Positions 19,901 to 45,898 of a stretch of 50,936 bases of DNA are shown piece after piece. Where the stretch lies: NCBI GenBank assembly GCA_043810925.1, contig JBDRNT010000007.1, forward strand, positions 1-50,936, read 5' to 3'. The translations under genes and the position numbers were made by a program. Each line of letters opens with the position of its first letter. Position 1 is the stretch's first letter. The stretch is from Candidatus Eiseniibacteriota bacterium (lineage in GTDB: Bacteria > Arandabacterota > Arandabacteria > Arandabacterales > Arandabacteraceae). The notes beneath the pieces were generated by a model. It had not been told where the DNA came from, did no database searches, and saw only the letters and a program-made list of their open reading frames with translations.

Positions 19901-22900
19901 CGGCCCGCTTGTCGTCCAGGCGTATACGAACGGCCAGCTCGTGACCCACAGATGAGCAGGACCGACGGGAATACCCAGAAGCGTCGCAACCGGTACGCCA
20001 GGCCTTTCGGCATTGTCATACTCGCTCCAGTTATCCGACTCATCCTTGGCTACGACTTCAACCTCAGGATGCGGCTGAGAATCAGCGAGCAGATCACCAC
20101 CCGGACACGCTTCATCCTCGAAGAGCACGCCGTCGTCGCAGAAGTCGCCCGGATTTCTCACAACCTCGAACTCAACCTCATAGACCGGCGACTGCGCCGT
20201 CAGCGCCACCATACCCTTGTACGGGTAACCCCAGTCATAGAGGTAAGCCCAGACACCCGCAACACCACCGCCCGGCGCGTCGGTCATGTCGACCGAGACC
20301 TTCACCGAGTCGCCGATGTCGCAGATACCGTTGTCATCGAGATCCGTGAAGCTGACGCTTATGTCAGCCGGATCAATAGTAGGAATCAGGTTATCGACCG
20401 CAACCGGGTCGCCTGCGAACGTCTGGCCGCCGTTGGCAGCCACAAGCACGTCGCTATAGACCCAACCGGTCGAGTAGTTACCCGCATCATCCTTCGAGCG
20501 GACCCTTATCCTGGTCCCGGGATCGTCGGCCGCGAGCTGTGCACCACCCGGAAGGATGGGAGCACCCTCGACCAACTCCTGCCCTGAGGCCCCGGTCCAG
20601 AAGAAGAAGTAGGAGAACTTACCGTCGCCCTCACCACCGGCACTGTAGTCGTCATCGACGAGGTCGATGTAGTTGGCGAAGTAGGCAGTCCCGTACTGGC
20701 TTATATCCGCTTCGACCGATGCGGTATTCCACTGCATGTCATAGCCAGGAGCAGTCGGATCGCCCATGTTGACGATGATACGGAGCCTGTCGCCAACGTT
20801 GGCTATACCGTTACTGCTCTCAAGCAGCTCGAACGTGATGGCATCCGCATTAGGCGGGCCGGGACGCTCGGTATCGACACCGACACAGTCGGCGCCACAT
20901 GCATATGTGGTATCGGCAGGCGTGGCGATCGGATCCGGAAGCACCGACTCGTTGAACCATATCGGGCAGAGCCAGACCGACGTGGTGTTACCGGCATCAT
21001 CGATCGCGGACATGAGGACTAACGTCCCGAGTCCGCCGGGGCCCTGGTCAACCACACCGTCGGGCACCGGATCGACCCTGTAGCCCCACTTGTAGGCCGG
21101 GCCACCGTCAAAGCCGAACACCATGTTAACCACACCGGCGGTACCGATTGAGGCACCGTAGTTCGAGAAGTCTGCCTCGACACTCACGACGTCACCATCC
21201 ACATCAAAGTAGACGGCCGTCAGGTTGTCGCCGCAGTTCACGATCGGTGTAGGAATGTTATCCACGTAATCCCAGAGCCTTAAGTAGGCATTCGCACAGG
21301 TCAGACTCGGTGCCATGTTATCAACACAGATCGAGTTTGAGGTGCAGTTATAGGTATTGCCTACCTCGTCTCTTGCGAAGACAGCGAACGTGAAGGCGGG
21401 ATTATCGGTGGTGCCCGCATCAACCGTGAACGAACCGGACCATGATGCACCCTCGGTAAGCCAGAGTGTATCTGCGGTCGCGGAGGTCAGGTCACCGGGA
21501 AGCACACCGATTTCCACAACGTCATCATCGACGCCGTCATAGTAGAAGCCGACTTCGTCGCCGATCGCGGCACACATGGTGTCCGCACCGGTTATCGAAA
21601 TCTGTATCTCACTGCAGGCAATCATCGGTGCGTAGTTATCGAGCACCAGGTCTGAACAGAAGTTCTGCCAGCCGTTGGTGTTACCCGCGTTGTCCCAGAC
21701 CTTGAAGTCGGCACAAAGCGTGTCACCGTCGATTGTACCTCCTTTGATCGGATAAGCCATGCCCGGTCCATCAGGCCAGTGGTTGCGGTAGACACCACCT
21801 GAAGGATTCCAGTAGAGGCTAACCGTAGTGTCGGGATAGGAAGGATCGATCGAGGAGCAAAGCACCTGGACCGAATCGATCTCAGTGTCATCCCAGACCT
21901 GGTCTTCGGCTCTCCACTCGAAGATTATTGAATCGCCGACGGTCACGATACCATCACCGTCCATGTCGCCGTCAACGCCGAATGTCTCGGGATCGTCCCA
22001 GAACATTATGGCAACGTGGTCGGCCGTCATGGTCGGCGGCTCGTTATCCACCTTGGGCTGGACACACGAAGTGTCATAAGCCGCGTTACCGGAATTATCG
22101 GTAACGAGCACGACGAATTCCTGCGTCAGCTCATCGGTATCGAGCGTGCAGACACCGGCTGCGCTTCCGGCCACCTGGATGCGGGTCTGGCCGGTATAGT
22201 TCTTATCGCCCATTACCGGATCGGCGCCGTTTAAGCCGTTGTCATAAAGGAGCGGTACAGGATCGTTACAATATGGGTTGTCCATGAGAACAACGTCCGT
22301 GATCTCGCTTGCGCCCCAGATATTACCGAGGTTTGCGTGAAGGACGATCCTGTCCCTGTTGTCATAGCTGTTGCCGTAGATGCCACCGACAGGCGCGCCG
22401 ACGTCGGCGTAACCCGCGTAGCTGGCGACGTCCTCTTCAAGCTCGCACCAGATATGCGGCCCACCAATACAACAAGCGGCATCGCACCACGGCAGCTCGT
22501 TATCTATCGCGAGCGTCGTGTCCCACTGGCCCACCATGAAATAGTTGCCAGCGTTATCAAAGATGTATACCTGAGTCAAGACTGAGTCCTGATCCCAGGG
22601 ACCGTACGGAGACGGCGGACTCGCCAGAACATCTATAGAGTCCGTTCCCCACACGGGGCTGAGCGGGTGCATCGCAGCAGCGTAATCCTGCCCGAACGGC
22701 GTGGTAAGCGTGTTGGCTGTGTAGTAGCCTACACCCTGCATGTTCGCAAAGGCGCGCCCACCGTTAACCACATCCGCCAGGTCGAAGAGACCCTCGAGGT
22801 CGACTGTGACCTGGAGCCAGTCGGGTATAGGATTACCCACGCTCGCCGGGTTGAGGAGCGACGGGCTACCCGCATTGGCCATGTCGGCGACGAACCCGAT

Positions 22901-24325
22901 ATCCCAGGGCATGACGCTGTCTGTCGGAGACGACATCACGATCATATCGGGAATCTGGTTATCGATCGCAAGCAGCCTGTTGGTAGGTGTGCCAAAGACA
23001 GTGGTATCACCCGAGTCACTGATCCAGATCATCGCGAGCGCCGAATCGGCTTCGCAGTCGGTCGAGTCCGGCAGTATCTGGAAGCAATAGGTGAAGATGC
23101 TGTCAAACGGGACACCATTACTGTCAGGCATCGAACAAACGACATCACCATAGTAAGGACTGTCTATGTGCCACCAACCCGAATCGGCGTAAGCCTGTCC
23201 GAGCAGGTGAGCATCGAAGCACAGGAACATGATATCGTCGTTCCCGTTCTCGTGAGCCAGCTTCCTCATATCTACGTAGAGACAGACCACGTCGGCCGGC
23301 AACCCAAGCGGTGCAGATGCAGGGTTCAAGATGAGGTCCGTCTCGCCGAAGATTGGCCCGTTACCCGCATTCATCGTATTGAAGGAGAAGAAGTAGTCGA
23401 TAGTCTCTTCGAACTCCGTCGGGTAGAGCCTCGTCCACGGTGATATATAGGTCGAGTGATGCGTGTCATAGTCGACGTACGCCACCCAAGCCTCGTTCGC
23501 CGGAGCCCACGAGCTCAGCGTATCCGTGTAGCCGTTAGTCATGTTGGCCGTCACGAGCACCGAGGGATCCGTGTGACCCATGTAATTACACGGTGTGTTG
23601 TCAATCCAGAAGCTGTCCGCATCGGATACGACAAGCGTATCGGCCCAGACCGAATCGGGTCCGACCTCTGCCCACGTTTCAAACTCGAAGTGGTCGCAGT
23701 CGGTACACGCCGCAGGGTTGGTACAGCAGACACCCGCAGCAGCCGTTATCGTGAACGTGAAAAACGTGTCGCCGCCTGCCCTGGCCCAGTACTGGGTCCC
23801 TGTGTAGGCCGGGGTAGGGAGCGTTCCCGTCACGTTACCGCTGACACGCCAGTAGGGACCACCTGGATCATAGCAGACCTCCCAGTGCTCGGTTCTTACA
23901 AGCACCGTGTCGGCAGGTCCACCCAGCCAGGCCTGGTCGGTGTGATAGAGCACCGGGTTGACCATCGAGGCAGTGCCGGTAACGCTACATGACGGTATCC
24001 AGGCATCCGCTGTGATCACCGCAGGCGAGCCCATGAAGTGGCTTAACATCTCTGCCGTGCCGCCGCCATACTTTCTCATGTCGGCAACGACAGAGGTCAC
24101 ACTGTCGGGATTACCCGGCGTCAGTGTGACTTCCACCACTATGGTGTCACCAATGCTGACCATGCCGTTACCGGGCTTCCCTGCAGGCTCTTCATCCCCG
24201 ATAAGCCTTATCTTAGGCCTCGGGTCGATGTTCACGACAGCATTAGCCACCGAGACCGTCCCTGCAAGGAGCGCAGCAACAAAAACCAGTACTACGAGCT
24301 TCCTTGACAAAGAATGGAGGTTCAT
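13943..24325 (-). CDS. Giant (~3460 aa) secreted acidic multi-Ig-like surface protein with C-terminal FlgD/T9SS-type sorting domain
   Basis: ATG at 24325 with AAAGGAG and a signal peptide; repeated DNxxP domain ends; C-terminus YPNPF...IYDFAG...W.G....G..VASGAY. An alternative GTG start exists at 24448. Confidence 0.9.
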   Translation of the reverse strand: MNLHSLSRKLVVLVFVAALLAGTVSVANAVVNIDPRPKIRLIGDEEPAGKPGNGMVSIGDTIVVEVTLTPGNPDSVTSVVADMRKYGGGTAEMLSHFMGSPAVITADAWIPSCSVTGTASMVNPVLYHTDQAWLGGPADTVLVRTEHWEVCYDPGGPYWRVSGNVTGTLPTPAYTGTQYWARAGGDTFFTFTITAAAGVCCTNPAACTDCDHFEFETWAEVGPDSVWADTLVVSDADSFWIDNTPCNYMGHTDPSVLVTANMTNGYTDTLSSWAPANEAWVAYVDYDTHHSTYISPWTRLYPTEFEETIDYFFSFNTMNAGNGPIFGETDLILNPASAPLGLPADVVCLYVDMRKLAHENGNDDIMFLCFDAHLLGQAYADSGWWHIDSPYYGDVVCSMPDSNGVPFDSIFTYCFQILPDSTDCEADSALAMIWISDSGDTTVFGTPTNRLLAIDNQIPDMIVMSSPTDSVMPWDIGFVADMANAGSPSLLNPASVGNPIPDWLQVTVDLEGLFDLADVVNGGRAFANMQGVGYYTANTLTTPFGQDYAAAMHPLSPVWGTDSIDVLASPPSPYGPWDQDSVLTQVYIFDNAGNYFMVGQWDTTLAIDNELPWCDAACCIGGPHIWCELEEDVASYAGYADVGAPVGGIYGNSYDNRDRIVLHANLGNIWGASEITDVVLMDNPYCNDPVPLLYDNGLNGADPVMGDKNYTGQTRIQVAGSAAGVCTLDTDELTQEFVVLVTDNSGNAAYDTSCVQPKVDNEPPTMTADHVAIMFWDDPETFGVDGDMDGDGIVTVGDSIIFEWRAEDQVWDDTEIDSVQVLCSSIDPSYPDTTVSLYWNPSGGVYRNHWPDGPGMAYPIKGGTIDGDTLCADFKVWDNAGNTNGWQNFCSDLVLDNYAPMIACSEIQISITGADTMCAAIGDEVGFYYDGVDDDVVEIGVLPGDLTSATADTLWLTEGASWSGSFTVDAGTTDNPAFTFAVFARDEVGNTYNCTSNSICVDNMAPSLTCANAYLRLWDYVDNIPTPIVNCGDNLTAVYFDVDGDVVSVEADFSNYGASIGTAGVVNMVFGFDGGPAYKWGYRVDPVPDGVVDQGPGGLGTLVLMSAIDDAGNTTSVWLCPIWFNESVLPDPIATPADTTYACGADCVGVDTERPGPPNADAITFELLESSNGIANVGDRLRIIVNMGDPTAPGYDMQWNTASVEADISQYGTAYFANYIDLVDDDYSAGGEGDGKFSYFFFWTGASGQELVEGAPILPGGAQLAADDPGTRIRVRSKDDAGNYSTGWVYSDVLVAANGGQTFAGDPVAVDNLIPTIDPADISVSFTDLDDNGICDIGDSVKVSVDMTDAPGGGVAGVWAYLYDWGYPYKGMVALTAQSPVYEVEFEVVRNPGDFCDDGVLFEDEACPGGDLLADSQPHPEVEVVAKDESDNWSEYDNAERPGVPVATLLGIPVGPAHLWVTSWPFVYAWTTSGPLAYMIADTDDPDPVNPDFDDLNMSDIRAWRLVDGRIGLDFWYEKNPRNMDVQEFYVFPSDEGGNIDLETFLGGPISAGMVPTAGPLDGAYEWVSDASVSEELEYFGVMAVDNAGNMSDPNYTMTVGIYGDATYPTATVEAFRDENWEEGVPTDIGDHSVYFLGYLVEDEYWDVCYVEWWGRVADSNPFVPGPQPGEWQLLFNEGTYPAGVTLPTAPYRCEADVLPGIFSMEACTNLEIVAIPWDVAGNHQPVGEADPFMFTWDDFMPVVTMFTVDGVSSPQSLEAAGTVEVIVRAYDECPETGVLHYALYLDQIGGVNITDQFLDGQSLAPGEAFTYTWDLTNYPAGAAQLTIDVDDEGMSGTTSQDGPVVNVLDQSAPGGVLAAGTTPGTAYQEGAHWPSDWDFDFYFLVEWPQAIGTANYDVGEVSVDYMVQGSMADWTPIGTKTTVPTFNGPTSGAYWYPYNFAFDTSIFTETTMLDVRATVMDHIGNTQETIMTITINPIAPDMAMEIPEAIEACGNDHMVAAPFNIIATETITSGVDTKDVKVFYKWHSDPDLHSSWTTAVADLEPTPYTNETVWRALVSTWSPGTGEFDLLLGTTDVAGNNSWDLDDDGLIDPGAFGTAPAGMKMTVYVSSAAADVRLWTLNEFDATDLGTVLYVQCGTDVTVTSMIDNTCEVARVDYFLGGSALIANPTHVGTSTTGPGYEATFPVSGDICDLLKPGALQNGYVKVAVKVTLTDLWGRTRTYTDSLVVLDQGAASAFVTDPLNGECISGGVVLNADVFDADAVYDVTYEYRTADVLGDWTHIATTKPNCGDPWATGIDNMPIYWYTNLLADGPYDLRAVSRDANLMPDPGPPTIRVTVDNTVPDVVLTIDPTVESGGITWIGGWNGITLTADVDDGEGCGVECVVFGYKSVEQASFSSITHSDCYYPFAVLWDSCGEYPFCYYQSGDYLLQAETEDKAGNIGYDTVAVYIDHWAPEAWITTIEDAWGTLTTVTPDDPCCCYDVWGVITLSGMGEDLVPSGSVMNTARNSGLVKAQFQYREYDPETECGYLDLLQASEPEDGDWFDLGDPVDVGSGEFSRDWDTGALAKAYYLVRTIGIDLVGNRYDMGCFGYTPPAVCIHVTDMIPPAAVIAGADDVTGYVWAVVDDHDQNDVAFVRFEFMDEDGVAWTVIGEVDESISRGLYGVPWHYIQTRIPVGSYWVRAVAYDDDWDPIQRPNMYDQNPAKMLITIASDGVTMASTSEITSLTRWGNLEECEDITWKAVSVDKPVVIGVFDNDPEDHFNTPWANWRDGLIRGDDPAAWYDHFAIDEVDPWGTLTLIATHNDDGIVGAVTNKVNLYKASDREGTRGPVSQDGMTVDIPAGAFDDTDGLLIIQVPELIADPSIDDPIAIGDPVMMTFLDHGDCDHYRFENGVRGWICMDYDDADIPQGYDEEDLRIAWWSQDDQEWYFEDCGVDFALPTVDTEANKACVYVDQTGTYAVTATKPLRITTPVFDPRCACGEGVCYTSVWPSFCTIIEDLRYDYIDEIKVVLDGPAGNPIYDDMTIYDAGGGEYEGSGWFSEVTYGAGWYGSYEPTSNRLCLKLVQPDSWSYYWDYWDEDWFFFYGDIISGGLPAGTYTLDITAQNEMGDTEYLTYTFMVDATAPDVDFIGEYVMKDPVFTLTVTDDESGVETGSIFLDIYGVTPDDDFCCDYDTEHEDYLGTATPTALEFDPVTGGYTVTFGKMAYGGTLRDGMSIDVVVYDGTYTSSNCEYGECRQYHTDDGVVDCAENHANPMWRRFTVDATPPTMEIVSDEGASVIKIEICDTGAGIDSDKLLVDNVPLSQTDYDWSWTPMSPTCGILRIDIGEGAVDINITATDGAGNFQVVEITTSADVVDLFNIKSYPNPFDPAAGENANIVYTLSKPAHVTISIYDFAGGHVKTIVDMYRGAGTYTDMWMGVDGGGNPVASGAYIAYIKVEDSYKTVTRNLKIGVVRGGN

Positions 24326-24794
24326 ATCTCCTTTCCTCCTCTCATGCGTAAACCCTTTTTTGCCTTCGACCTCATCACCAGAAAAATAAGAAAGAACAGA
24401 ACCAACGGAATAGATTGCACTACTGAACTTATGAGTCCATTTACTCACGGCTCATGACCTCCTTACTTTACCGTTCTGATGCCGAAGACATACAAAGACC
24501 CCGACCTCCATCGGGAATCTCCTGTCTTCTTGCAGCTTATTTCCGTTCTCAACATTCATGCGCTAAAAAGTTGGTTGCCTGCGAGCGATAAAAAGCACCA
24601 ACGAACATCCCCGTCTGGAGCAGATCTCTCGCAGCGATATTTAGCTCCCTCCTTTCAGATGCAATCCTGACTTGCACAAATCCCCTGTGTGAATTTTCGA
24701 AACCATGCCACACGCACCCATTTGCTGTCAAGTGCAAAACCTGTCTAACTATCCCGGAAAACACTAAACGTCATCTGTCCGAAATTCGGTTGCC

Positions 24795-28075: not shown

Positions 28076-31000
28076 TTAGGCCTCGCGCCGGCGCTTGAGT
28101 CTCTCCATAAACCTCTCAAAACTCATGTACACCACGGGGATAATTACGAGAGTCAGGATCGTGGATGCCCCCAGCCCTCCTATCACGGATCTTGCCATAG
28201 GTGAATTAAGCTCCGATCCCTCGCCCAGCCCGAGCGCCATTGGAGTCATGGCAAGGATCGTTGTGCATGCGGTCATCAGGATCGGGCGACGCCGGGTCCT
28301 CGCAGCCGTGACGACCGCCTCTTCCAGCTCGAGACCCCTCGCCCTCAGAAGGTTGGTATAGTCCACCAGTATTATGGCGTTGTTGACCACAATGCCCGCC
28401 AGGACGATCACTCCGATCAGGGAATTGATGCTCAGGGTCGTCCCCGTTAAGAACAGCATCCAGGCGACACCTATAAATGAAAGAGGAAGCGAGAACATGA
28501 TGATGAAGGGGTGCCTCAATGACTCGAACTGTGAGGCCATGACCATATAGACAAGGAAAACGGCCCCAACAAGTGCAAGACCAAGCCACATAAATGACTT
28601 GCTGACCTCCTCTGCCTCCCCCGCTATCTCCGCCACGAAGTCGGGTGGTACCTGAAGCTCTTCCAACTGCTCGCGGAGATCACCGACCACCGCACCGAGG
28701 TCGCGTTCACCGGTTAGATTGCCTGTGACAGTGACCAGGCGCTGCTGGCCTTTGCGCTCAATCTCAACCGGACCGCCCGTGACTTCCATGCTTGCAACCG
28801 TGGCAAGCGGTATGGGATCACCCGACGGGGTGGGAATCAGGACATTCATGATATCCTCAAGCGAGCGGCGTTTCTCTTCGGGCAGCCTCACCCTGATGCT
28901 GTATTCCTTTCCGCCCTCTCTGTACTGGCCCGCAACCTCACCCATCACGGCCGTTTGTATCGAATACGCTATGGAAGTAACACTCAACCCGTAGTAGGCG
29001 GCTTTCTCACTGTCGATCACTATCTGGGACTCGGGTTTGCCCTCCGCCCTGCTTACTCTCACATCGGTCGCGCCGTATATGCCTTTCATGATGCGCTCAA
29101 CGTCGTTGGCGAGTTTCCGCCCCACCTCGAGGTCATGCCCGTAGATCTCCACTGCAAGCCTCGCTCCACCGAACATCATCTGCGAAAACTGGTCCGCCTG
29201 GAAATAAGCCTTCGCACCTGGAATCTGGGTCAGGTGAGGCCCAAGGGCGAGACGAATCTCATCGTCACTCCTGTCACGTTTATTGAGTCCCACAACCCTG
29301 AAGGCCACGCGTCCCATGTGGCTGCCCGTGCCACCGAAAAATGCGCCGAAGCCCGTCCCCTGCCCGATCCTCGCGAACATGGTCTCGATCTCGGGCACGT
29401 CCCTGCGTAAGATCGTCTCAACGTCCTTAACAGCCCCTTCGGTGACATCGAGCCTCGTACCGACAGGCATCTCAACGGTGATCTGGAACTCGCCGGGTTC
29501 GCTGTGGGGCATGAACTCAACGCCTACATAACGGATCAGGCTGACACTCAGCACAAAGATCACCACCGCAATTGCCAGGGTAACCTTTCTGTGTCTTAAG
29601 GCCCACCGCAGCATACCTTCATACCAGCCACCCGCCTTCACCGAGCGTCTTTCCTCACGGACCTTCCTCTTAACGGTCAGGACCTTGGAGGCCAGCAGCG
29701 GAATCAGGGTCAGAGCAACGAAAAGCGAGCACAACAGTGCGAACACGACCGTGATCGCCATGTCCCTGAAGAAGATCCCGGCGATCCCGGGCACGAACAC
29801 AACGGGGAGAAAGACGGCCACAGTCGTGAGGACCGAAGCGGTGATAGCGTTGGCGACCTCACTGGCTCCATAGACCGCCGCATCCTTCCGCGTCAGTCCC
29901 TTTTCTCGCTGCCGGAAGATGTTCTCCAGCACCACAATGGAACTGTCGACAAGCATCCCGATTCCGAGCGCAAGCCCGCCCATCGAGATCATGTTGAGGG
30001 TGACATTGGCAAACCGCATCACAATGAAGGTCGCGATCACCGACACCGGAATTGATGTCGCTATAATAAGCGTCGACGGTATGTTCCTGAGGAAGAGCAG
30101 GAGCACAACCACGGCCAGGATAGCACCCTGGACCGCTACCGACCTGAGGTTTCCGATCGAGCTCTTGATATACTCGGCTGAATCCATGACGACCACGAAC
30201 TCAACCTCGAGCAGATCCTCGATACGGCTGAGCTCTCCCTTGACCCTGTCGGATACTTCGACAGTGTTCGCAGTGGACTGCTTCTGGATCATCACCATCA
30301 GGCCCGGTTTCCCGCCGAGCCTGAGTTCCTCTACGCGGTCCGCAAATGCATCCTCAACAAACGCCACATCCCTGAGGTACACAGGAGACCCTTCCACACG
30401 GGCCACGACCACGTCGTTTATCTCACCGACTGATTCAAACTCGCCCGTCGTTCTGACGAGAAAATCACTTCGTCCCTGTTCAACGCGTCCGCCCGGCACC
30501 CGCACATTCTCCGCGCGGAGCGCATGGACCAGATGTCCAAGCGTAAGTCCATACGCCTTGAGTTTCTCATCGTCGGCATAGACGTGGATCTCCCGCTGTT
30601 TGCCGCCCTGGGTATAGACGGCGGCAACGCCCTGGATCCGCTCGAGCCTTGGCTCGATCTGGTCCTCCGACAATGTCCGGAGCTCCGCAAGGCTGTAGTC
30701 ACCCCCGACACCGAGGAACAAAACCGGCATAGCCGATGTTGAGAACTTGAAGATGAACGGAGCGTCTGCATCATCAGGCAGGAACGGCGCAACGAAATCG
30801 ACCGCTTCTCTGACGTCAAGCGAGGCAATGTCCATCTCCTTGCCCCACTTGAACTGAACCATGACGAATGAAAGTCCCTCTCGCGATGACGATGTCACCT
30901 CTTCAACATCTTCAACGGCAGCCACCGCTTCTTCGATCGGTTTGGTTATGAGCGTCTCGATGTCCTCCGGGGAGACACCCTCATAAGTCGTAACAATCGA

Positions 31001-34972: not shown

Positions 34973-35099
34973 CGCTCTCACCTCCCACCTCAAGATACCA
35001 TACCCTGACCGATCTGGCAACCAAGCACTCTCCTCCCGCAACCGGGCACTCTCCCCACTGGAATCCTCTTGCGGGAGGTGCCAGTGCGTGTTAGTATCC

Positions 35100-36500
35100 A
35101 TGCACAAGGGAGCTCCATCCGCAAGGATTGCTATAGTGTCACTTCGGGCTTATCGGTTTTCCGCAAGATGGATACAGCTTACAGCAGCGGTTTTGCTCAT
35201 AGGCATCGCCGGCTCTGTCTCCGATATATCCTGGGCGACCCGGCCACCGGTCTTGCCCGTGGATCCTTATCAGGATTACGGCATACAGGTAGTCGCGGAT
35301 CGTCACTCCGGGGTCGTTCCTTTCACCGTCGCCTTCGAGGTGGTCGTAACCGGCAATGAAACCGTGGAAGCGGTACGCTGGGACTTTGACTCGGATGGCA
35401 CGGTGGATGCTCAGGGGCTCAAGACGAGTTACACCTTCTCGGACCCAACCGATTATGAGGTCACCGCCGAAGTCAGGACCTCGTTTCACGGGAGACTCTT
35501 TAGAACTGTAAGGATTTCAGGCCACACTGCTCTCATGACCATAACGTTCGATGACGGCCCGCAGTCAATCCGCGAGCATGGATTGCCGCTCCTGGCGAGT
35601 AAGGGAGTAACGGCTACAGCCTATATCGTACCGGCATGGGTCGGCATGGAGTGGTATCTTCAGTGGGAAGAAATAGCAGAGCTCCATGAGGCGGGCTGGG
35701 TTATTGGCAGCCACACCCAAACGCACCCAAGACTCACCGAGGTCGATGACGCAGACCTTCATCATGAACTGAGCCAGTCCCAGAACGAGTTACAGGGGAG
35801 GGGATTTCCGGCGAGACACCTCGCGGTGCCCCATGGCGACTATGACGCCCGCGTCCTTGCCGCGATAAGACTCTACTATGACACCAATCGAATCATCGGC
35901 GGCTTGAATCCCCTGCCGGAAGCATCCGATCCCTATCTTCTGGGCTCGCATGTGTCGCTGGACTGGATGGGGCTTGGACACTACAGCGCACAGATCGACA
36001 GTGCGGTCGCCCGCCACGGATGGTATGTAATGTGTAATCATTCAATAACCCCGGTTTGCGATGAAGATCCGTGGTGCATCTCGGTACAAATGCTCTCCGA
36101 CGTAATCGACTATGCTCGCAGTAAGCGCGTGAAGATTGTGAACATGGATGAAGCGTTTGACATGATGCATCCCGACCAATGGGCGCCCGGAGCCGGCGTA
36201 GTCGCAAACGGACAAACGGCTACCACTTCGCCCATACAGGCTCTGCGAGTAAGCCGGGGGTATCGGCAGGTGACCATAAAATACGAGGTACTCAATCCCA
36301 CCCGGTTGGGTATCAGGATTTTCGACGTCAGAGGCAGGCTTGTAAGTGCGCTTCTTGATAAGCGGCATGGATGCGGTGAACACAGTATTATCTGGAACGG
36401 TACGGATGTCTACGGCAGGCCTGTGCAAGCCGGCATTTACTTCTGCGAAGTCATAGCCGGGAATACCAGAGAGTGCAGGAAGATTCAGCTTATCCACTAG
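35100..36500 (+). CDS. Secreted PKD + NodB-type polysaccharide deacetylase + FlgD-type CTD, paralogue 1 (start uncertain)
   Basis: WDFDSDG, TFDDG, GSHTQTH and IFDVRGRLV...WNG...GIYF motifs. Confidence 0.88.
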   Translation: MHKGAPSARIAIVSLRAYRFSARWIQLTAAVLLIGIAGSVSDISWATRPPVLPVDPYQDYGIQVVADRHSGVVPFTVAFEVVVTGNETVEAVRWDFDSDGTVDAQGLKTSYTFSDPTDYEVTAEVRTSFHGRLFRTVRISGHTALMTITFDDGPQSIREHGLPLLASKGVTATAYIVPAWVGMEWYLQWEEIAELHEAGWVIGSHTQTHPRLTEVDDADLHHELSQSQNELQGRGFPARHLAVPHGDYDARVLAAIRLYYDTNRIIGGLNPLPEASDPYLLGSHVSLDWMGLGHYSAQIDSAVARHGWYVMCNHSITPVCDEDPWCISVQMLSDVIDYARSKRVKIVNMDEAFDMMHPDQWAPGAGVVANGQTATTSPIQALRVSRGYRQVTIKYEVLNPTRLGIRIFDVRGRLVSALLDKRHGCGEHSIIWNGTDVYGRPVQAGIYFCEVIAGNTRECRKIQLIH

Positions 36501-36663: not shown

Positions 36664-38046
36664 ATGCGACGAGTGCTTTCACACGAAGTCCCGGGTCATC
36701 AGTCTCTTACGAGACTGATACGGCTAACAGTCTCGGTCATGATCATTGGTCTGGCCGGCTCCAGCCCCGATGCCTCCTGGGCGATCCGGCCGCCTGCTTT
36801 GCCCGTTTATCCCTACCAGAATTTCGATGTACGTGTAGTCGCGGATCGTCACTTCGGAGTCGTTCCTTTCACCGTCGACTTCGAGGTGGTCGTAACCGGC
36901 CATGAAAACTTGCGCATGGTGCGCTGGGACTTTGACTCGGATGGCACGGTGGATGCTCAGGGACTCAAGACGAGTTACACCTTCTCGGATCCAACCGGTT
37001 ATGAGGTCAATGCTGAAATCAGCACTTCTTTTCACGGGAAGCTCTTCAGGACCATCATGATTACGGGCCACACTGCTCTCATGACCATAACGTTCGATGA
37101 TGGTCCGGCGTCAATCCATTACTACGGCTTGCCGCTCTTAGCGAGAAAGGGAGTGACAGCTACAGCTTATATTGTCACGGATTGGGTAGGCCGGGGTTGG
37201 TATCTTGAATGGGAAGAGATACGAGATCTCCAGGAGGCGGGCTGGGTCATAGGAAGTCACACTATGACGCACGCAAGACTTACCCAGGTCGATGAGGCGG
37301 ACCTTCATTATGAACTGAGCCAGTCCCAGAACGAGTTACAGGGGAGGGGATTTCCAGCGAGACACTTCGCAGTGCCCGAAGGCGCTTATGATGCCCGCGT
37401 CCTTGATGCGATCCGACTCTACTATGAAACCAATCGTATTGTCGACGGCCTGAATCCCCTGCCGGAAGAGTCGGATCCCTATCTTCTTGGCTCACATGTC
37501 TCGCTCTCCTGGCTGCCGTTCGAGGCGTATCGTGCACAGATAGACAGTGCAGTCGCCGAGCGCGGATGGTACATAATGTGCAATCACTCGGTAGACCTGA
37601 ATTGCTATAGCAAGCCATGGTGCATCTCAACGGAAATGCTCTCCGACGTAATCGATTATGCGCTCAGTAACGGTGTGAAGATTGTGAATATGGATGAAGC
37701 GCTTGACATGATGCGGTCCGGCCAAGAGGAATGCTCAGTTGGAGTACTCGCAGCCGGACAAACAGATACGCCGGTGCAGATACAGGGTTGGTGGTTTGAC
37801 CCTGGGAATCGGCAGGTGACTATAAGATACGAGGTACTCAACCCCACGCAGGTGGGTATGGAGGTTTACGACGTTCGAGGCAGGCTTGTAAGTGCGCTCC
37901 TTGATAAGCGGCATGGATGCGGTGAACACACAGCCGTCTGGAATGGCACGGATGCTTGCGGTAATCCTGCGGCAACCGGCATTTACTTCTTAGAAGTGAC
38001 GACCGGGAACACCAGACAGTGCATGAAGATCACGGTGATCCGCTAG
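36664..38046 (+). CDS. Secreted PKD + polysaccharide deacetylase + FlgD-type CTD, paralogue 2
   Basis: Same architecture with long near-identical stretches shared with paralogue 1. Confidence 0.88.
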   Translation: MRRVLSHEVPGHQSLTRLIRLTVSVMIIGLAGSSPDASWAIRPPALPVYPYQNFDVRVVADRHFGVVPFTVDFEVVVTGHENLRMVRWDFDSDGTVDAQGLKTSYTFSDPTGYEVNAEISTSFHGKLFRTIMITGHTALMTITFDDGPASIHYYGLPLLARKGVTATAYIVTDWVGRGWYLEWEEIRDLQEAGWVIGSHTMTHARLTQVDEADLHYELSQSQNELQGRGFPARHFAVPEGAYDARVLDAIRLYYETNRIVDGLNPLPEESDPYLLGSHVSLSWLPFEAYRAQIDSAVAERGWYIMCNHSVDLNCYSKPWCISTEMLSDVIDYALSNGVKIVNMDEALDMMRSGQEECSVGVLAAGQTDTPVQIQGWWFDPGNRQVTIRYEVLNPTQVGMEVYDVRGRLVSALLDKRHGCGEHTAVWNGTDACGNPAATGIYFLEVTTGNTRQCMKITVIR

Positions 38047-38083
38047 GCGTACCATCCGGGATGACTTCCGCGACTTCTTCTCG
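38045..38083 (+). repeat. Degenerate att-like scar R0
   Basis: aggcgtaccatccgggat matches the R4 core at 13/18; reads RRTIRDDFRDFF. Confidence 0.55.
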
Positions 38084-38995
38084 CTACCTGAACATCCTCT
38101 TGATGTTGCCCCACGTACCCGGCTCAACCTGCGACGGGCCTCCGCCTGAAATAGCAACGGCGTAGTTGATCTCCGCGTTAATGCCCGGATAGAGCGGGGT
38201 TATGACCCACTTGATCCCGTTCCACTGGTAAGGCACCGTGCGCGGTCCGACTCCGGCAGGCGGTCCGCCCAGGATCCCAATATCGTCGGAATCGGTTATG
38301 GTAAGCATCAGGTTCGCTATGTCGATGTCCCACAAGGTGATCGCATGATAACCGAATGCCGTCGACAGGTTATACGGACCAGGAGCTTCCTCGTAGGGTA
38401 TGGTCGGAGTGGTCCCATCCGATGGCTGAAACCAGCAGGTGAGCCCTACGGGCACGCACTCGGTGTCAAGCCTGGCCTTGCACCACTTGATGGGATCGAC
38501 CGGAAGCCCGGCACCGGTGAACCACGGACCTCCGAACTCAGGATTGGTCCGGATGGGCACATGGAACGGCGACCCGGCAAAACTTAAGCCCCAATCCTGC
38601 CAACCACCATCGTCGAAGGTCCTGGCACCGGGGCCGCATGCCCAGTATGGAAGACCCCAGACACTCAGGTTAGGATCAGGAGGTACGCCATTCAGCAACC
38701 AGCCCATGTACGGGTTTGCGAAACCCGAATATACCAGCAGATTGCTCGTGCTTGCCAGCCAACAGCTGAGGTCGGGCCGGACGGCATTGTGCACCGCATC
38801 TCCACCGGCGAGAAAAGGCTCACCGGGGTCGTGGCACATGTTAAGGTTTATATCGTTGTAGTGCAGGATGTAAAGCTGACCCGCTGCGGACCAGGACTGC
38901 TTGTTCTGGTCAACCGGAGGGCCTGGCTGCGCAACCAGCGTCGAGACGCAAGCCAAGACAATGGCCGCGGTGATAATCATGCTCATCATCTTCAT
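38084..38995 (-). CDS. Secreted IdeS/Mac-like (papain-fold) cysteine protease candidate with TWGxIK tail
   Basis: Signal peptide; SCWLASTSNLL, HAITLW and ITDSD motifs; ends TWGNIKRMFR. Confidence 0.7.
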   Translation of the reverse strand: MKMMSMIITAAIVLACVSTLVAQPGPPVDQNKQSWSAAGQLYILHYNDINLNMCHDPGEPFLAGGDAVHNAVRPDLSCWLASTSNLLVYSGFANPYMGWLLNGVPPDPNLSVWGLPYWACGPGARTFDDGGWQDWGLSFAGSPFHVPIRTNPEFGGPWFTGAGLPVDPIKWCKARLDTECVPVGLTCWFQPSDGTTPTIPYEEAPGPYNLSTAFGYHAITLWDIDIANLMLTITDSDDIGILGGPPAGVGPRTVPYQWNGIKWVITPLYPGINAEINYAVAISGGGPSQVEPGTWGNIKRMFR

Positions 38996-39088
38996 ATTAA
39001 CACCCCCTTTGCTCGCCTATTGTAGCAGAGATCGGCAACAATAGTCAACCACTGAAGGCCTGAAACCTCACATTTCAGAGCACTGAGA

Positions 39089-39160
39089 TGGCGGGGCCGA
39101 CCGGACGAGTCTCCTGAGAACCTCACCTCCAAGGAATGCGTTCAAACGGCCCAGCTCACA
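39089..39160 (+). repeat. att-like scar R1 (tRNA-Asp 3' end plus conserved tail)
   Basis: TGGCGGGGCCGACCGGAC matches the tRNA 3' end at 17/18; reads WRGRPDESPENLTSKECVQTAQL. Confidence 0.85.
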
Positions 39161-39216
39161 GAGGCGGCATATCCTTGGGCACCGCTTGTCCATGGAATGG
39201 GTGAACGTCAAGAGCC

Positions 39217-40344
39217 TCAGAGCCGCCGCAGCAAGATCAGAGAGAGATCATCGCTTGTGGGCTCATCACCGACAAATTTCTCCACTTGCTCAACGATCCG
39301 CCTGCCCGCTGCCTCTGCCGAAAGTCCTTCAATGTCCGGCACGAGCTCAGCCAGACGATCATCTCCGAAGAACTCCTCCTGCGCGTTGCAGGCCTCGGTC
39401 ACACCGTCCGAGTATAAAAGCAGCATCTCACCTCGCCCGAGCTGTACCGTCTGCCCGGGAAAGTCTGAATCGGGCACAACACCCAGCGGAGGCGCCACCG
39501 GCGGCAGCGTATCATGTGAACCGTGCTTGACCCTGATCGGCGGCATGTGACCGGCATTCACCAGGCGGACGGTGCCCGCTTCCGGGTCCAGGGCCATGTA
39601 CACCGCGGTGGCAAAACTCCCCGAGGGGGTATCCCGGTAGAGAATCACGTTCGTGTGGGCAATCAGAGCAGATGGCGATTCAAAATCCCCGGCCGATCCC
39701 CTCAGGGTCGCCTGAAGCTTGGCCATGAGCAGCGCCGCTCCCAAGCCCTTGCCGGAGACATCCGCCAGAACGAGGTCGAGCCGCCTCTCATCGACCTTGA
39801 GGTAATCAACCAGATCTCCCCCGACGTCATTTGCGGGCCGGCTGAAGAGCCAGATGTCCCAGCCGGGCAGCGCCGGGCTCTCGCCGGGGAGAAGCGCAAG
39901 TTGCACCGCGCGGCCCAGCTTCAGCTCGTCTCGTGCCAGGAGTTTGTCCTTGAGCTCAAGCATGAGGACAATGAGCAGGAGCAGAAAACCGGTCTTGCTC
40001 AGATCGGTATGGAAGTGGGATGAACCGGCTCGGAAGCCGACGTCGCCCAACATCAGGAACAAGAGCGAGAGCACTGCCAGGACGCGCCGTACGGGCGATA
40101 GACTGAGGATCATGCTTTTGAGAATCCACCAGAGGACGACGAACCAGCGCTTGACTCGCCACATGGCCTTCAGTCGCGCCTGTTCTTCTTCGTCGAGATA
40201 AAAGCGATAGAGGTCTCTGAGATCCTTCCTCATGCCCCGCCTGAGATCACCGTGCTTGAGATCGCCAAGCATGGTTGCGGCGATTCCGCGACGCCCTCCA
40301 GGTCTGCTTTGTTGCTCTTCTGTGTCGCCGGTTTCCATATTCAT
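39217..40344 (-). CDS. Membrane-bound PP2C/SpoIIE-family Ser/Thr phosphatase (start uncertain)
   Basis: VGGD, ADVSGKG, NAGH, YSDGVTE and DDLS motifs; N-terminal TM helices. Confidence 0.93.
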   Translation of the reverse strand: MNMETGDTEEQQSRPGGRRGIAATMLGDLKHGDLRRGMRKDLRDLYRFYLDEEEQARLKAMWRVKRWFVVLWWILKSMILSLSPVRRVLAVLSLLFLMLGDVGFRAGSSHFHTDLSKTGFLLLLIVLMLELKDKLLARDELKLGRAVQLALLPGESPALPGWDIWLFSRPANDVGGDLVDYLKVDERRLDLVLADVSGKGLGAALLMAKLQATLRGSAGDFESPSALIAHTNVILYRDTPSGSFATAVYMALDPEAGTVRLVNAGHMPPIRVKHGSHDTLPPVAPPLGVVPDSDFPGQTVQLGRGEMLLLYSDGVTEACNAQEEFFGDDRLAELVPDIEGLSAEAAGRRIVEQVEKFVGDEPTSDDLSLILLRRL

Positions 40345-40435
40345 CTGCTTACCCCGTGGGTTATCTCTCTGCTGCACATGATATTACACCTGATTTCCCT
40401 GCACAAGGAAAACAGGGGCAGGGCGGAATAGAGGA

Positions 40436-40515
40436 TAGCGGGGCCGACGGGGCGAGTTTCGCAACTTCCTCAGGTCTGAGGGGTGCCTGAAAACCGCCCG
40501 GCTCGTGGGAGCTTG
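40436..40515 (+). repeat. att-like scar R2
   Basis: TAGCGGGGCCGACGGGGC matches at 16/18; reads *RGRRGEFRNFLRSEGCLKTARLV. Confidence 0.85.
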
Positions 40516-40568
40516 CCGGTTGTGTTGGTGGCAACCACAGGATTTGGTATAATGAGTATGGGTGGAAC

Positions 40569-41411
40569 ATGAGACTGAAGACTCTGGTGTGCACTGTCTG
40601 TATGTTCACTACCGCTGTGGCGATGGGCCAACCGTCCGCAGACAGCAGTGGAGAACCATCAATTGAGTTTCCCTACGTTCTGAAAATCGCTCCCGGTAAC
40701 GTACTTGTCGTTTACGGGCACGTGATTCGTAACGAGGTTTTGGTCACCTGGGAACCCGGGGATAGTCTGCGAGTAGAAGGCCTGCCTATACTCCCGAAAC
40801 CTTCTGTCCCCCGCATTGTACTCTCAGAGCACGGTCTGGCCAAGACCTATGGAAGAGTTGACTATGTTCGGGAACGTGTCGACAGTGGTTATACCTGGCG
40901 GCAGGCGACTGACGCGTCGTTCCAGAAGAGGCATGAAGAAATCCAGTCTGCCCGAGCCGTTTATGCGACGGTAATAGACTCAACGGGATCCCACGAGAAG
41001 GCGGCAAGAGCTGTTTCCAATTCGTTCGACCGATCGCTCTTGAGGCCAGGTTATGAGCCAGTCGTAACGCTCACTCACACAAGTGTGGAATGGCAGGGGG
41101 GGTTCACGGATCACGATATGCCCGAGCTTGAGTTCAACCGGGGGAACCCCGACTTCAAGGAGATATTCAAGAAAACAACCGAGGAAGGTCGAGCTTGTTT
41201 TAAGACAAGACAACTCGTCTGGTGGTTAGGCGGGCCTGGAATCTGCGTTGTTATGGAGAACCCGGGCGGTATGAGAGCCTCTTGTGGAGATTCGGCTCGC
41301 AGAGCCGTCGCTCAGATCGAAGCGGCGGAGATGGGCAGTATCAAAGAAGGCCGGATTGATGAGACGGATCTGAGGCGGATAATTGACACCCAGGCACCTG
41401 AGTCGGAATGA
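40569..41411 (+). CDS. Hypothetical secreted protein
   Basis: Signal-peptide-like N-terminus and TATAAT promoter just upstream; stop lies 1 nt before R3. Confidence 0.75.
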   Translation: MRLKTLVCTVCMFTTAVAMGQPSADSSGEPSIEFPYVLKIAPGNVLVVYGHVIRNEVLVTWEPGDSLRVEGLPILPKPSVPRIVLSEHGLAKTYGRVDYVRERVDSGYTWRQATDASFQKRHEEIQSARAVYATVIDSTGSHEKAARAVSNSFDRSLLRPGYEPVVTLTHTSVEWQGGFTDHDMPELEFNRGNPDFKEIFKKTTEEGRACFKTRQLVWWLGGPGICVVMENPGGMRASCGDSARRAVAQIEAAEMGSIKEGRIDETDLRRIIDTQAPESE

Positions 41412-41412
41412 G

Positions 41413-41499
41413 CGGCGGGGCCGACGGGACGAGTTTCGCAACTCTCTTAGGTCTGAGAAGTGCTTTAAGACCGCTGGCCCGGTGCCCTGCCTTGTTTGA
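41413..41499 (+). repeat. att-like scar R3
   Basis: CGGCGGGGCCGACGGGAC matches at 17/18; reads RRGRRDEFRNSLRSEKCFKTAGPVPCLV*. Confidence 0.88.
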
Positions 41500-41542
41500 T
41501 CCCTACCCTGCTGACGGTGCTTTCCGACAACTGAGACCAGTC

Positions 41543-42187
41543 TCAACGTTCTTCCGGACACAAATGCAGGTAGGATCCTGCAAACGCGATGAAGTCCTGA
41601 AGATCGACGTCGCCGTCCCAATCAAAGTCCACACACCACTCGTCACCAAGATAGGCTGTGGCGAAGAAGATGAAGTCCTGCAGGTCAACATCACAGTCGG
41701 CATCGGTATCCGGACTGGCCGTGGTTATGCGGTTGCTCGGGCCAAGTTCGACACCCTCACTCACGATCGAGAACTGAAGACCACAGTCGCCGCCATCACC
41801 TGACTTAGTGTCACATCCACCGAAGTGAGAGAAGGTCACCGAACAGGTGCCGGTGATATCCGTCAGGCAGCTTGCGGGTGCTTCACCCGGACAGAAACAG
41901 TGACCTGGCTTATACCCTGGCCCAGGATCAACATCCACGATGATGGGATCCACGACCACCCAATGATCCCGAAGCGGAGTCCCATAGCAGTCTCTGACAT
42001 TTACCGTCACTGTCACCACGTCCGTGTCACTCGCGGGACGGTAGGTACCACGATCCGGTGTCGCAATTCCGTCTGAAGTCCCCGCACAAGGAACTCCCGC
42101 ATATGTAGCGCCGGCAAGAAACACCATCGCGGTGATCGCGGCAAACACAACGATGCCGAGGCAGACAGGCGAGAAAGTCTTAGTCAT
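41543..42187 (-). CDS. Secreted Cys-rich Ig-like protein with dockerin-like double EF-hand C-terminus
   Basis: GGAGG RBS, signal peptide, DTDADCDVDLQDF and DFDWDGDVDLQDF. Confidence 0.8.
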   Translation of the reverse strand: MTKTFSPVCLGIVVFAAITAMVFLAGATYAGVPCAGTSDGIATPDRGTYRPASDTDVVTVTVNVRDCYGTPLRDHWVVVDPIIVDVDPGPGYKPGHCFCPGEAPASCLTDITGTCSVTFSHFGGCDTKSGDGGDCGLQFSIVSEGVELGPSNRITTASPDTDADCDVDLQDFIFFATAYLGDEWCVDFDWDGDVDLQDFIAFAGSYLHLCPEER

Positions 42188-42346
42188 AACCCACACCTCC
42201 TTGCTTGCCGTATTATACCACAGATAGCAGATAAATCAAGTGACGAGATGGGCTTGGGTGCGGTTAGGAAGAGACAACGTGATCCCCGGCAGTAGACGAC
42301 CGATGGGCATCTGCCGCCTCCGGCAGTATCGAGGGCTGAGATTCAA

Positions 42347-42433
42347 TGGCGGGCCATACGGGACGATTATAGAACTTTCCTGAGGTCGGAGGAGTGCCGT
42401 AAGACTGCTCAGTTGTTGGCCTGTCTCACATGA
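42347..42433 (+). repeat. att-like scar R4
   Basis: TGGCGGGCCATACGGGAC matches at 15/18; reads WRAIRDDYRTFLRSEECRKTAQLLACLT*. Confidence 0.8.
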
Positions 42434-42615: not shown

Positions 42616-43209
42616 TTATTTGAACACAGCTTTGATATCGCCCCATGTGCTGGATTCTATCCCCATAGTCCCACAAGGATTCTCACCGGACGAACCTCCA
42701 ATACCAGCACAGAAGCTCCTGCTTGTTAAGACACTGTCTGCTGTAGTGCCGCCCTGGCAGTCGGCAGCGCTGATACGATCGAACAGCGGGTGTGGGATTA
42801 CGCAAACCGTACCAAAATCAAAGATCCAGGCCCAACCGGGGATGCCAACGGGGCCCGGCTGGCATGTTGCCCACGCATGCGCAATGCCATCACCCGGCCA
42901 GACGATGTCTCCGATGGTAAGATAGCTGCAGCTCGTGAACACGCAGCTATAGAGCCCCGGCCAGCTCATTCCGTAGTCAAAACCCTGATATTCGACCATA
43001 TCAAAGAATACAGGGAAAGCATCCACATCGTGGCTTGTCTCAGTCTCGATGATATCCGCGCAGCCCGCAATCGTCGGTAAGCCGCTACAAGTTCGCGAAG
43101 CATGAGGCAAAACGTGAACTGCAACCTTGGCATCCGTGTTCAGCCCGGCAAACGCAACAACAGATATGGCGGCGACAGCAATACAAGAAAGCAATAGCGT
43201 TCTAAACAT
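42616..43209 (-). CDS. Secreted Cys-rich hypothetical protein with TWGxIK tail
   Basis: GAGGAGG RBS, ATG at 43209, signal peptide; ends STWGDIKAVFK. Confidence 0.82.
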   Translation of the reverse strand: MFRTLLLSCIAVAAISVVAFAGLNTDAKVAVHVLPHASRTCSGLPTIAGCADIIETETSHDVDAFPVFFDMVEYQGFDYGMSWPGLYSCVFTSCSYLTIGDIVWPGDGIAHAWATCQPGPVGIPGWAWIFDFGTVCVIPHPLFDRISAADCQGGTTADSVLTSRSFCAGIGGSSGENPCGTMGIESSTWGDIKAVFK

Positions 43210-43384
43210 ATCCCGCACCTCCTCTCGGGAAGCATTGTAGCACAGGCACCTCGCAAAGTCACGTGAAATCCCAGGACTTGCCCGGAGCGGTTCGAGGCCC
43301 GATTGCCATGGAAGCGGCAACGCTAACAGTCAAAGATAACAGGAGAACCTCTGGGGCGCTGAAACCGGACCCTGCAGAAGGCAG

Positions 43385-43462
43385 TGGCGGGGCCGACGGG
43401 ACTCGAACCCGCGACCTCTGGCTTGACAGGCCAGTGTGCTAACCAAGCTGCACCACGACCCC
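43385..43462 (-). tRNA. tRNA-Asp(GTC)
   Basis: Cloverleaf with GGGGTCG/CGGCCCC acceptor stem, CTGGC-CTGTCAA-GCCAG anticodon arm, GGTTCGAGTCC T arm and encoded CCA. Confidence 0.98.
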
Positions 43463-43532: not shown

Positions 43533-43560
43533 TGGGGTCAGGCTTTGAATACTGGAATTC
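43533..43560. repeat. Single family A arm
   Basis: tggggtcaggctttgaatactggaattc. Confidence 0.8.
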
Positions 43561-43622
43561 TGCTGGGAGAATCAATCTGTCGGGCGCGTGCACCCGGCGC
43601 CACAGGGCATCAGCCCTCCACG

Positions 43623-44829: not shown

Positions 44830-44911
44830 TTCGTTCCTCGCAATGACAGAATTCATCCTCGTAATGACAGAAGACGGCCCCGCGATGACAGAAGACAGCC
44901 CCGCGATGACA
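44814..44911. repeat. GAGATTGCTTCGTC...CCTCGCAATGAC palindromic repeat (family C) plus ~21-bp tandem copies
   Basis: gagattgcttcgtcacttcgttcctcgcaatgac followed by three cc(t/c)cg(t/c)(a/g)atgaca units; a variant occurs at 45792-45828. Confidence 0.75.
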
Positions 44912-45760: not shown

Positions 45761-45898
45761 TGGGGTCAGGCTTTGAATTCTGGAATTCCGCGAGATCGCC
45801 GCGTTCCCTCCGGGAGCTCGCGATGACACACGTAGTCCCCGGACGCCCCTCAATGGCAGCATGCGGCCCGCAATTCCAGAATTCAAAGCCTGACCCCA
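45761..45898. repeat. Family A inverted-repeat element inside the ABC operon
   Basis: TGGGGTCAGGCTTTGAATTCTGGAATT ... AATTCCAGAATTCAAAGCCTGACCCCA. Confidence 0.88.

Follow-up and report, generated by a model that had tools for sequence, protein, structure and literature searches.

How does a peptide that has no start codon come to stand, several times over and with the marks of protein-level selection, beside a single tRNA gene? The question is raised by contig JBDRNT010000007.1 of a Candidatus Eiseniibacteriota genome (assembly GCA_043810925.1, 185 contigs, here G000). By the window we mean the whole of this contig, 50.9 kb. On the 3' side of its tRNA-Asp gene, toward lower coordinates, lie five units (cassettes) of 0.9-1.3 kb with one open reading frame (ORF) each, and at their boundaries stand the repeats R0 to R4 (Table 1), in which the peptide is encoded. 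An earlier note on this DNA had taken the peptide for the severed C-terminus of a recombinase, possibly of the tyrosine type as in Myxococcus phage Mx8. Our protein comparisons place the peptide, here called the tail, at the C-terminus of a large serine recombinase (LSR). The repeats themselves are very probably scars of the attL kind, that is, a displaced tRNA-Asp 3' end joined to the last 24-28 codons and stop of an LSR gene that carries attP inside the gene.

The boundary repeats and the origin of their peptide

R1 to R4 share one build: an 18-nt complement of the tRNA-Asp 3' end (the core), followed by ~70 nt of non-tRNA sequence with a start-less frame of ~28 codons. The block copied in every repeat is the final 18 nt of tRNA-Asp, located at 43385-43402 on the plus strand by pattern match with 0 mismatches. 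It takes in CCA, the discriminator, the 3' strands of the acceptor and the T-stem, and two T-loop bases, all read on the opposite strand; the W codon of the peptide, TGG, is the complement of the CCA of the tRNA. All five repeats and their peptides, checked against the sequence and its translations, are as the earlier note had described them, and the frame across the tRNA-Asp gene does read W R G R R D S N P. A 17-nt core pattern with at most 3 mismatches occurs 5 times in the window, compared to a mean of 0.48 in shuffled sequence, and 0 of 100 shuffles reached 5. R4 is the boundary closest to tRNA-Asp; it shares its stop with R3, both ending 28 codons past the W position. Identity to the family consensus drops with distance from the tRNA, from 58/93 in R4 through 54/93 in R3 and 51/84 in R2 to 40/80 in R1. 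R0 is not alignable to this consensus and was not detected by nhmmer; it was assigned by eye against cores such as L058_5992, and its start coincides with the stop codon of the upstream ORF (36664-38046).

The variation among copies has the pattern of protein-level selection. Across 72 unique full-length copies from 11 genomes, the frame proposed by the earlier note has 0 stops in 1656 codons, compared to 18-137 in the other five frames. Among codons with a single difference, 277 of 604 are synonymous (0.46 versus 0.18 expected), and the entropy at codon positions 1, 2 and 3 is 0.89, 0.66 and 1.15. The pooled Nei-Gojobori dN/dS, a calculation the note had called for, is 0.30 in this frame and 0.55-1.48 in the others. 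A single stop position serves 60 of the 72 copies (TGA 52, TAG 5, TAA 3), and 55 copies align over 97 columns with zero gaps. DNA conservation is strongest, third codon positions included, from the core end through ...GACTTTCGCAAC..., and the remaining tail varies like coding sequence; judged by this conservation, the former stretch may be read as a candidate recombinase binding half-site. The peptide is nevertheless start-less, as had been noted: the copies have no start codon in common, and some have a stop directly before the W codon.

Which protein, then, does the tail end? A1, a 31-residue protein profile built from 16 tails, aligns by hhalign to residues 494-518 of the 520-aa protein P0110 (probability 95%, E 2.4e-8), and the R4 peptide matches residues 496-519 of the same protein in BLASTP with 16/24 identical (E 8e-9). 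The tail thus aligns to the extreme C-terminus of LSRs of ~500 aa, and the hits at recombinase C-termini that the note predicted are found in P0110 and P0106. Both are full-length (P0106 has 485 aa) and end ...W-R-A-I/V-R-D-D-F-...-S/A-E-E-C-..., with tail-bearing ends ...VWRAIRDDFAEWLRSEECRDLAGHLE in P0110 and ...IWRAVRDDFANWFQAEECLEVAHLDG in P0106. Both contain the Resolvase, Recombinase and Zn-ribbon domains (Pfam PF00239, PF07508 and PF13408), and P0110 is similar to the serine integrases of TP901-1 and A118. By these domains the enzyme is a serine recombinase, and the tyrosine recombinase modelled on Mx8 IntP does not hold.

Most copies in public data are short. A search of 1.84 billion proteins with A1 gave 101 matches, 98 of which are of 24-145 aa with mutually unrelated N-termini. 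As for longer matches, P0001 and P0086 are repetitive and unrelated, P0002 shows 26 short stretches, and the fragment P0100 has a Resolvase domain. The fragments P0061, P0067, P0094 and P0101 read ...LLSNCTFDG..L..YRKPFCWLAEG....W and then continue into the tail. With P0101 as query, 26 longer proteins were recovered, 21 of them with Resolvase, Recombinase and Zn-ribbon domains. Two of the 26 end in the tail (P0110 and P0106), 14 in a D-S/L-N-P/H/Q-type sequence, which is the translated antisense T-arm, 7 stop at ...WRG and 3 end otherwise. Body, core and tail stand in one frame in P0106 and P0110 at full length, in the fragments P0061, P0067, P0094 and P0101, and in an LSR remnant of a related genome (G009:C161). 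A Pfam scan of the 16 tails gave no match, and the best score of the tail in the ESM Atlas, 0.76, is a lead only.

Recombinase relatives at tRNA genes and a model of integration

A metagenome scan gave 596 matched stretches, of which 578 encode LSR relatives; 80 loci were kept, with 70 complete ORFs and 10 that run off the contig or are broken. ARAGORN places the end of 45 of these 70 within a tRNA gene on the opposite strand (Gln 19, Asn 14, Asp 4, Arg 2, Pro 2, and His, Trp, Ser and Glu 1 each), and a T-arm-like motif closes 11 of the remaining 25. The tRNA-Asp-integrated relatives are L081-L083 and L086. The two closest relatives of P0110 (76% and 69% identical) are on tRNA-Asp, with stops directly after ...IWRG and ...VWRG, and two further ones stop directly after ...MRGRRDLNSRPPA and ...MRGRRDSNSRPPA; that is, recombinase ORFs with WRGRRDSNP-like ends across tRNA-Asp, which the note had predicted, were found. 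Viral contigs hold 76 relatives. Among the 51 that were read, an antisense tRNA supplies the end of 9, and long free tails, mostly closing in -AA, -VA, -CA or -LA, are present in ~28. The family therefore has two C-terminal forms, one bearing the tail and one reading into the tRNA.

The repeats themselves show a split. The R-x-I-R versus R-G-R difference had been taken as a sign of two recombinase lineages. The better interpretation sets the attP-type core that the recombinase itself carries (P0110, P0106 and P0067 have it) against a tRNA-type core, and two lineages are not required.

Since most relatives end antisense in a tRNA gene, attP would lie inside the 3' end of the recombinase gene and the tail would be swapped on integration. 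With attP inside the reading frame, and TGG complementing CCA, the gene of the free element would run body - core - tail. Recombination of this element with the tRNA 3' end would leave host flank - core - tail on the far side and body - core - tRNA on the near side, with the tRNA restored. The integrated body would read antisense into the tRNA and end in tRNA-dictated residues, and the tail would be stranded start-less at the far end. The restored tRNA end could then be hit again, with older units pushed outward and the newest adjoining the tRNA. The window fits such stacking: R4 is closest to the consensus, identity declines stepwise to R1, and of R0 only a stump is left. The arrays are anchored at the tRNA-Asp 3' end and grow from it; that an LSR created these particular junctions in the window is something we infer. 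The earlier note went further and derived each scar from a different member of the recombinase family. A recombinase tail it is in each case; a different recombinase-bearing element per scar can only be proposed, because the cassettes of the window hold no recombinase body.

A swapped tail would presumably alter the stability or the directionality of the enzyme. Of the intact tails, 23/60 end in -LA and 28/60 in A, and by analogy a degron role of the tail may serve as a lead.

Several points weigh against this account. The evidence for the point of strand exchange is contradictory. Two boundaries in genome G008 are 98% identical over the left flank and the core to position 15 and only 69% identical in their tails, and a tail type with 93% identity is found both on an I-type core, in one genome, and on a tRNA-type core, in a second; both observations suggest an exchange at the right edge of the core. 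Integrated LSR ORFs, on the other hand, carry tRNA-type cores and free forms A/G-I/V/L-type cores, which suggests an exchange at the left edge. In addition, identity over 18 nt is seen more typically with tyrosine integrases than with LSRs. Neither the window nor the neighbourhood of any of the four tRNA-Asp arrays contains an LSR body, and the 80 metagenome loci show no tail and no second core within flanks of up to 8 kb. LSR genes or remnants occur in 4 of 17 genomes searched (G000 included) versus tails in 12 of 61. In the only full LSR gene of the family in this genome (C181, 55% identical to P0110), a group II intron at the contig end interrupts the sequence after ...FDGVSLYP, 12 codons short of the core. 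Finally, no public RNA run was listed for the region, and the only public DNA run with it (share 0.11) supplies two exact short contig pieces, whose sole joint lies outside the array, and in these short pieces there is no read-level evidence of excision or circles.

The intron lies at G000:C181 ~6066-6137 (L075:2892-2963, minus strand), matches Rfam RF00029 with 47.9 bits on the opposite strand, and is where the contig ends.

Arrays in related genomes and the movement of cassettes

The repeats are not confined to the window. In this genome an nhmmer profile of R1-R4 matches 35 times at E<=1, and 31 of these matches reach E<=1e-3; in the genome_contigs collection an exact-pattern scan matched only 4 stretches. 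The copies in this genome form arrays on several contigs, one of them downstream of a second tRNA-Asp gene. Among 61 related genomes A1 matches 12, G000 included, with 2-30 matches per genome; excluding G000, these are 8 of 12 same-family genomes and 2 of 3 next-family genomes, and one more match (E = 0.01) is not trusted. The arrays anchored at tRNA-Asp occur at 4 places in 3 genomes, always on the tRNA 3' side and with the repeats antisense to the tRNA. Unit spacing is mostly 0.6-3.9 kb, and of the array ORFs with at least 90 aa, 38 run against the peptide frame and 17 along with it. In the 49 ORFs scanned, the cargo comprises beta-helix proteins, a serpin, a catalase, methyltransferases, AbiE toxin-antitoxin pairs, Ser/Thr kinases with TPR, CHAT-TPR proteins, a sulfatase and a radical SAM enzyme. 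Fusion of cargo to tail by frameshift or read-through was considered and rejected: five same-strand cases have frame offsets of 1, 0, 1, 2 and 2, with no pattern.

The open frame around the A1 matches is 27-176 aa long with one exception of 429 aa, in G009:C167, which turned out to be a downstream gene whose ATG falls in a degenerate tail. At this locus (L039, 164-262 and 241-1446) the degenerate tail has no stop, and the ATG of the 401-aa downstream ORF lies inside the '...MA.NL...' codons of the tail.

How could units of ~1 kb without an LSR have reached these places? Our preference, held at slightly less than an even chance, is that they were moved in trans by such an enzyme rather than having lost their own LSR. 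This is favoured by a near-uniform short left arm, clean frames and recurring units of cargo plus tail.

Loss of the LSR is a serious rival all the same, and we would give it about two chances in five. Small genomic islands would each have arrived with their own LSR, later deleted, and the tails would be dead relics whose coding signature was inherited from once-active genes. LSR remnants with truncated 5' ends do stand beside cores, in a graded series: ~90 aa in G000:C41 and G013:C8; 25 aa in G013:C121, where ...YRKPFCWLAKG..NWQAWQDLNP... runs into an antisense tRNA-Trp; and 17 aa in G009:C161, where the last 17 LSR codons are kept and followed by W and then the tail (all of these are from the window's lineage). 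The tails in the window also decay with distance from the tRNA, and the stop or the W codon is missing from R1, R2 and several further copies. Yet only 4 remnants occur among ~115 matches, and most boundaries keep at most ~7 recognisable codons left of the core, which looks like a defined minimal arm and not like random deletion end points. The complete lack of stops in the 72 unique copies likewise speaks against dead relics, and paralogous cargo (beta-helix proteins) recurs with an adjacent tail in several arrays without an LSR.

Movement in trans could go further, and a serine-recombinase counterpart of the integron is possible, if rather doubtful. Here an LSR acting in trans would stack, excise and reshuffle one-gene cassettes at tRNA-Asp and at tRNA-Trp-/tRNA-Asn-like sites. 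The restored tRNA end would stay a target and each core-plus-tail boundary a donor-type site. In addition, each cassette would hold a spare functional C-terminus, completing any recombinase gene that lands upstream; a spare C-terminus in use would explain the protein-level selection kept on the tails.

It is highly improbable that the tail is an independent gene for a small protein of ~30-45 aa in each cassette, with an unrecognised start. The strong protein-level constraint would suit such a gene, the 98 short predicted proteins in public data end in the motif, and in a few copies an ATG stands in frame 5 codons upstream. Nonetheless, the copies share neither a start nor a ribosome-binding site, several have the stop directly before the W codon, the N-termini of the short proteins are unrelated to one another, and the motif is continuous with LSR bodies in P0106, P0110, P0067 and P0101.

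We give hardly any credence to a structured DNA or RNA recombination site (integron attC-like) or a non-coding RNA with an incidental open frame: the arrays look like integron arrays, with one-gene units, diverse cargo (AbiE toxin-antitoxin pairs included) and repeats in one orientation, but RNAalifold finds 0 consensus pairs in 55 copies, Rfam searches of both strands of the repeats match only tRNAs, period-3 substitutions, no indels and stop-codon switching at one position indicate coding, and the window has no tyrosine recombinase. Readings as structured RNA, attC, hammerhead (from a CUGAUGAG-like string) or a tmRNA-like molecule were rejected on the same Rfam and folding results. Equally implausible is a tail from a tyrosine integrase, as in phage Mx8, which shares the target (tRNA-Asp) and the logic (attP in the int 3' end): none of the 14 ORFs with a PF00589 (tyrosine recombinase) match in the genome ends in the tail, and all long proteins with the tail or leading into it have serine-recombinase domains. 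Lastly, a primer-binding-site reading of the 18-nt tRNA complement was dropped because the arrays abut the tRNA gene itself.

A further class of core, 'LPQRDD/LPKQND', resembles the tRNA-Asn 3' end without being identical to it, and in G000:C41 a core of this class abuts non-tRNA sequence. At G000:C41:33360-33878 and 30650-30714, and at ~17650 in G000:C64, a truncated LSR C-terminus runs through an 'LPK' core into a recurring non-tRNA sequence, which translates as LHHRQN(S/F)QGG; the same 45-nt piece stands ahead of two other boundaries. Directly left of many 'LPQRDD'-type cores, and of one tRNA-Asp-type core, lies a conserved DNA block of ~220 nt (L042, L052, L053, L054, G000:C99 ~52080-52300 and L046 ~1290-1490) that has no Rfam match and may be a shared promoter or leader of the divergent cargo gene. 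A longer ORF upstream of the 'LPQRDD'-type cores was a candidate and was rejected: its apparent conservation is that of the ~220-nt DNA element, and some copies have in-frame stops. Finally, at L069 and L071-L074 (genomes G001, G011 and G007), tRNA-Asn 3' fragments of at least 25 nt stand outside complete tRNA genes and without a recombinase tail. They reach 4-5 per genome and resemble the scars that another kind of integrative element would leave.

Table 1. Boundary repeats, tRNA-Asp anchor and cassette cargo in the window, listed from the tRNA outward.
Feature	Position	Strand	Description	Evidence
tRNA-Asp(GTC)	43385..43462	-	Intact; array anchor	ARAGORN; Rfam tRNA 68.7 bits
Cassette 5 cargo ORF	42616..43320	-	234 aa; between R4 and tRNA	No Pfam match
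R4	42347..42433	+	attP-type core (reads WRAIRD), intact 28-codon tail; TGG 42347, TGA stop 42431-42433	
Cassette 4 cargo ORF	41543..42196	-	217 aa	No Pfam match
R3	41413..41499	+	tRNA-type core, 17/17 to tRNA past first base (T replaced by C); tail	
Cassette 3 cargo ORF	40569..41411	+	280 aa; ends just 5' of R3, in another frame	No Pfam match
R2	40436..40511	+	tRNA-type core, TAG instead of W codon at 40436; tail without family-position stop	
Cassette 2 cargo ORF	39217..40377	-	SpoIIE/PP2C-type phosphatase	Pfam PF07228, E 4.7e-49
R1	39089..39161	+	TGG at 39089; tRNA-type core, 1 mismatch; decayed tail without family-position stop	
Cassette 1 cargo ORF	38084..38995	-	303 aa	No Pfam match
R0	38044..38080	+	~37-nt stump, attP-type core (reads RRTIRDDFRDFF)	

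In the window, the five cassette ORFs contain no recombinase domain (Pfam), and its contig shows no PF00589 match or LSR motif. The neighbours of tRNA-Asp are AnmK and ABC permease genes (Pfam). Just beyond R0 lie two paralogous polysaccharide deacetylase genes (35088-36500 and 36664-38046) that share 74% identity over 300 nt and have FlgD-Ig / T9SS sorting tails. Since the second gene's stop codon has bases in common with the start of R0, both may be older cassettes. Cargo genes on the tRNA sense strand have a common upstream region of ~40-230 nt (42185-42223 and 43207-43245 in the window, L063 ~2754-3054), which holds the start codon, a GGAGGTG-like ribosome-binding site and a TATAAT-like box; cassette 5 of the window and a cassette of the same-genus genome G001 are ~80% alike there. 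Elsewhere on the contig, three to four tandem 21-nt units (CGCAATGACAGAA...-like) occupy 44836-44911, where the AnmK gene region has its 5' end. The two copies of a 31-nt direct repeat (94% identical) stand just upstream of tRNA-Asp (43533-43563) and between the ABC permease genes (45761-45791), and one open frame of 3501 aa runs on the minus strand at 13943-24448.

Significance and comparison with known systems

In 2014 the authors of the main tRNA-island database wrote that no serine integrase was known to have tRNA genes as its target. Our full-text literature search, in which subscription-only papers and supplements were not covered, found no report of tRNA-targeting serine integrases that span attP, and a term search for 'tRNA' in PMC6907783 found nothing. 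The relatives collected here document a large serine-integrase clade that uses tRNA-gene 3' ends as attB. In this clade the recombinase gene spans its own attP and integration rewrites its C-terminus, a built-in switch between the free and the integrated state that has so far been known for tyrosine integrases and one repressor. The phenomenon, an LSR family with attP in the gene and tRNA genes as targets, is widespread. Moreover, recombinase-less arrays of ~1-kb units fall under the size and content filters of island finders, and in uncultured lineages a whole layer of accessory-gene traffic may therefore be missing from the counts. As landing-pad tools, serine integrases whose tRNA targets are conserved would also be of practical interest.

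How do these arrays compare with what has been described? Phage Mx8 reportedly carries attP in its integrase 3' end, integrates at tRNA-Asp and has a changed C-terminus once integrated. To our knowledge, no recombinase-less cassette arrays have been described for it. On this description its IntP/IntX pair resembles our system in the position of attP in the 3' end of the integrase gene, the tRNA target and an integrated form with a changed C-terminus; Mx8 Int is a tyrosine recombinase, whereas the enzyme here is an LSR. The Islander paper names both the Mx8 and the SSV integrases as extending across attP (PMC4383910). The 'suicidal' archaeal integrases of the SSV type are reported to have the recombination site inside their own ORF, so that the gene is broken in two (PMC7253208). 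Integration there too splits the integrase gene and leaves start-less fragments beside tRNA-derived repeats. However, these are archaeal tyrosine recombinases whose gene, according to the same paper, falls into two parts, and here only the last 24-28 codons are exchanged. For mycobacteriophage BPs, an attP in a coding gene is described, together with the removal on integration of a 33-residue C-terminal piece with an ssrA-like degradation tag (PMC4557955). On that description, attP inside a coding gene is a point of likeness, and the -LA and similar ends of our tails may be another; the gene that is split is a repressor there and a recombinase here.

The enzyme itself belongs with the integrases of A118, TP901-1, phiC31 and Bxb1 by its Resolvase, Recombinase and zinc-ribbon domains, and with TP901-1 and A118 by sequence similarity. 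The characterised large serine integrases are known to use a short attB in protein genes or intergenic DNA and to have attP outside the int ORF. The arrays are also like the tandem tRNA islands of Islander and TIGER, where an intact tRNA and displaced 3' fragments mark successive insertions. These pipelines require an integrase per island and at least 2 kb; our units, at ~1 kb and without an integrase, would be missed by such island finders because of these two requirements. Chromosomal integrons and CALINs come to mind as well, since both they and our arrays consist mostly of one-gene units (0.6-3.9 kb here) whose varied cargo includes toxin-antitoxin pairs, have all repeats in the same orientation, grow from a single anchor, and in many cases lack a linked recombinase. 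They differ in that here no attC hairpin and no IntI was seen (no IntI-specific model was searched), and in that our arrays are anchored at a tRNA 3' end, have a coding sequence as their repeat and carry cargo in either orientation.

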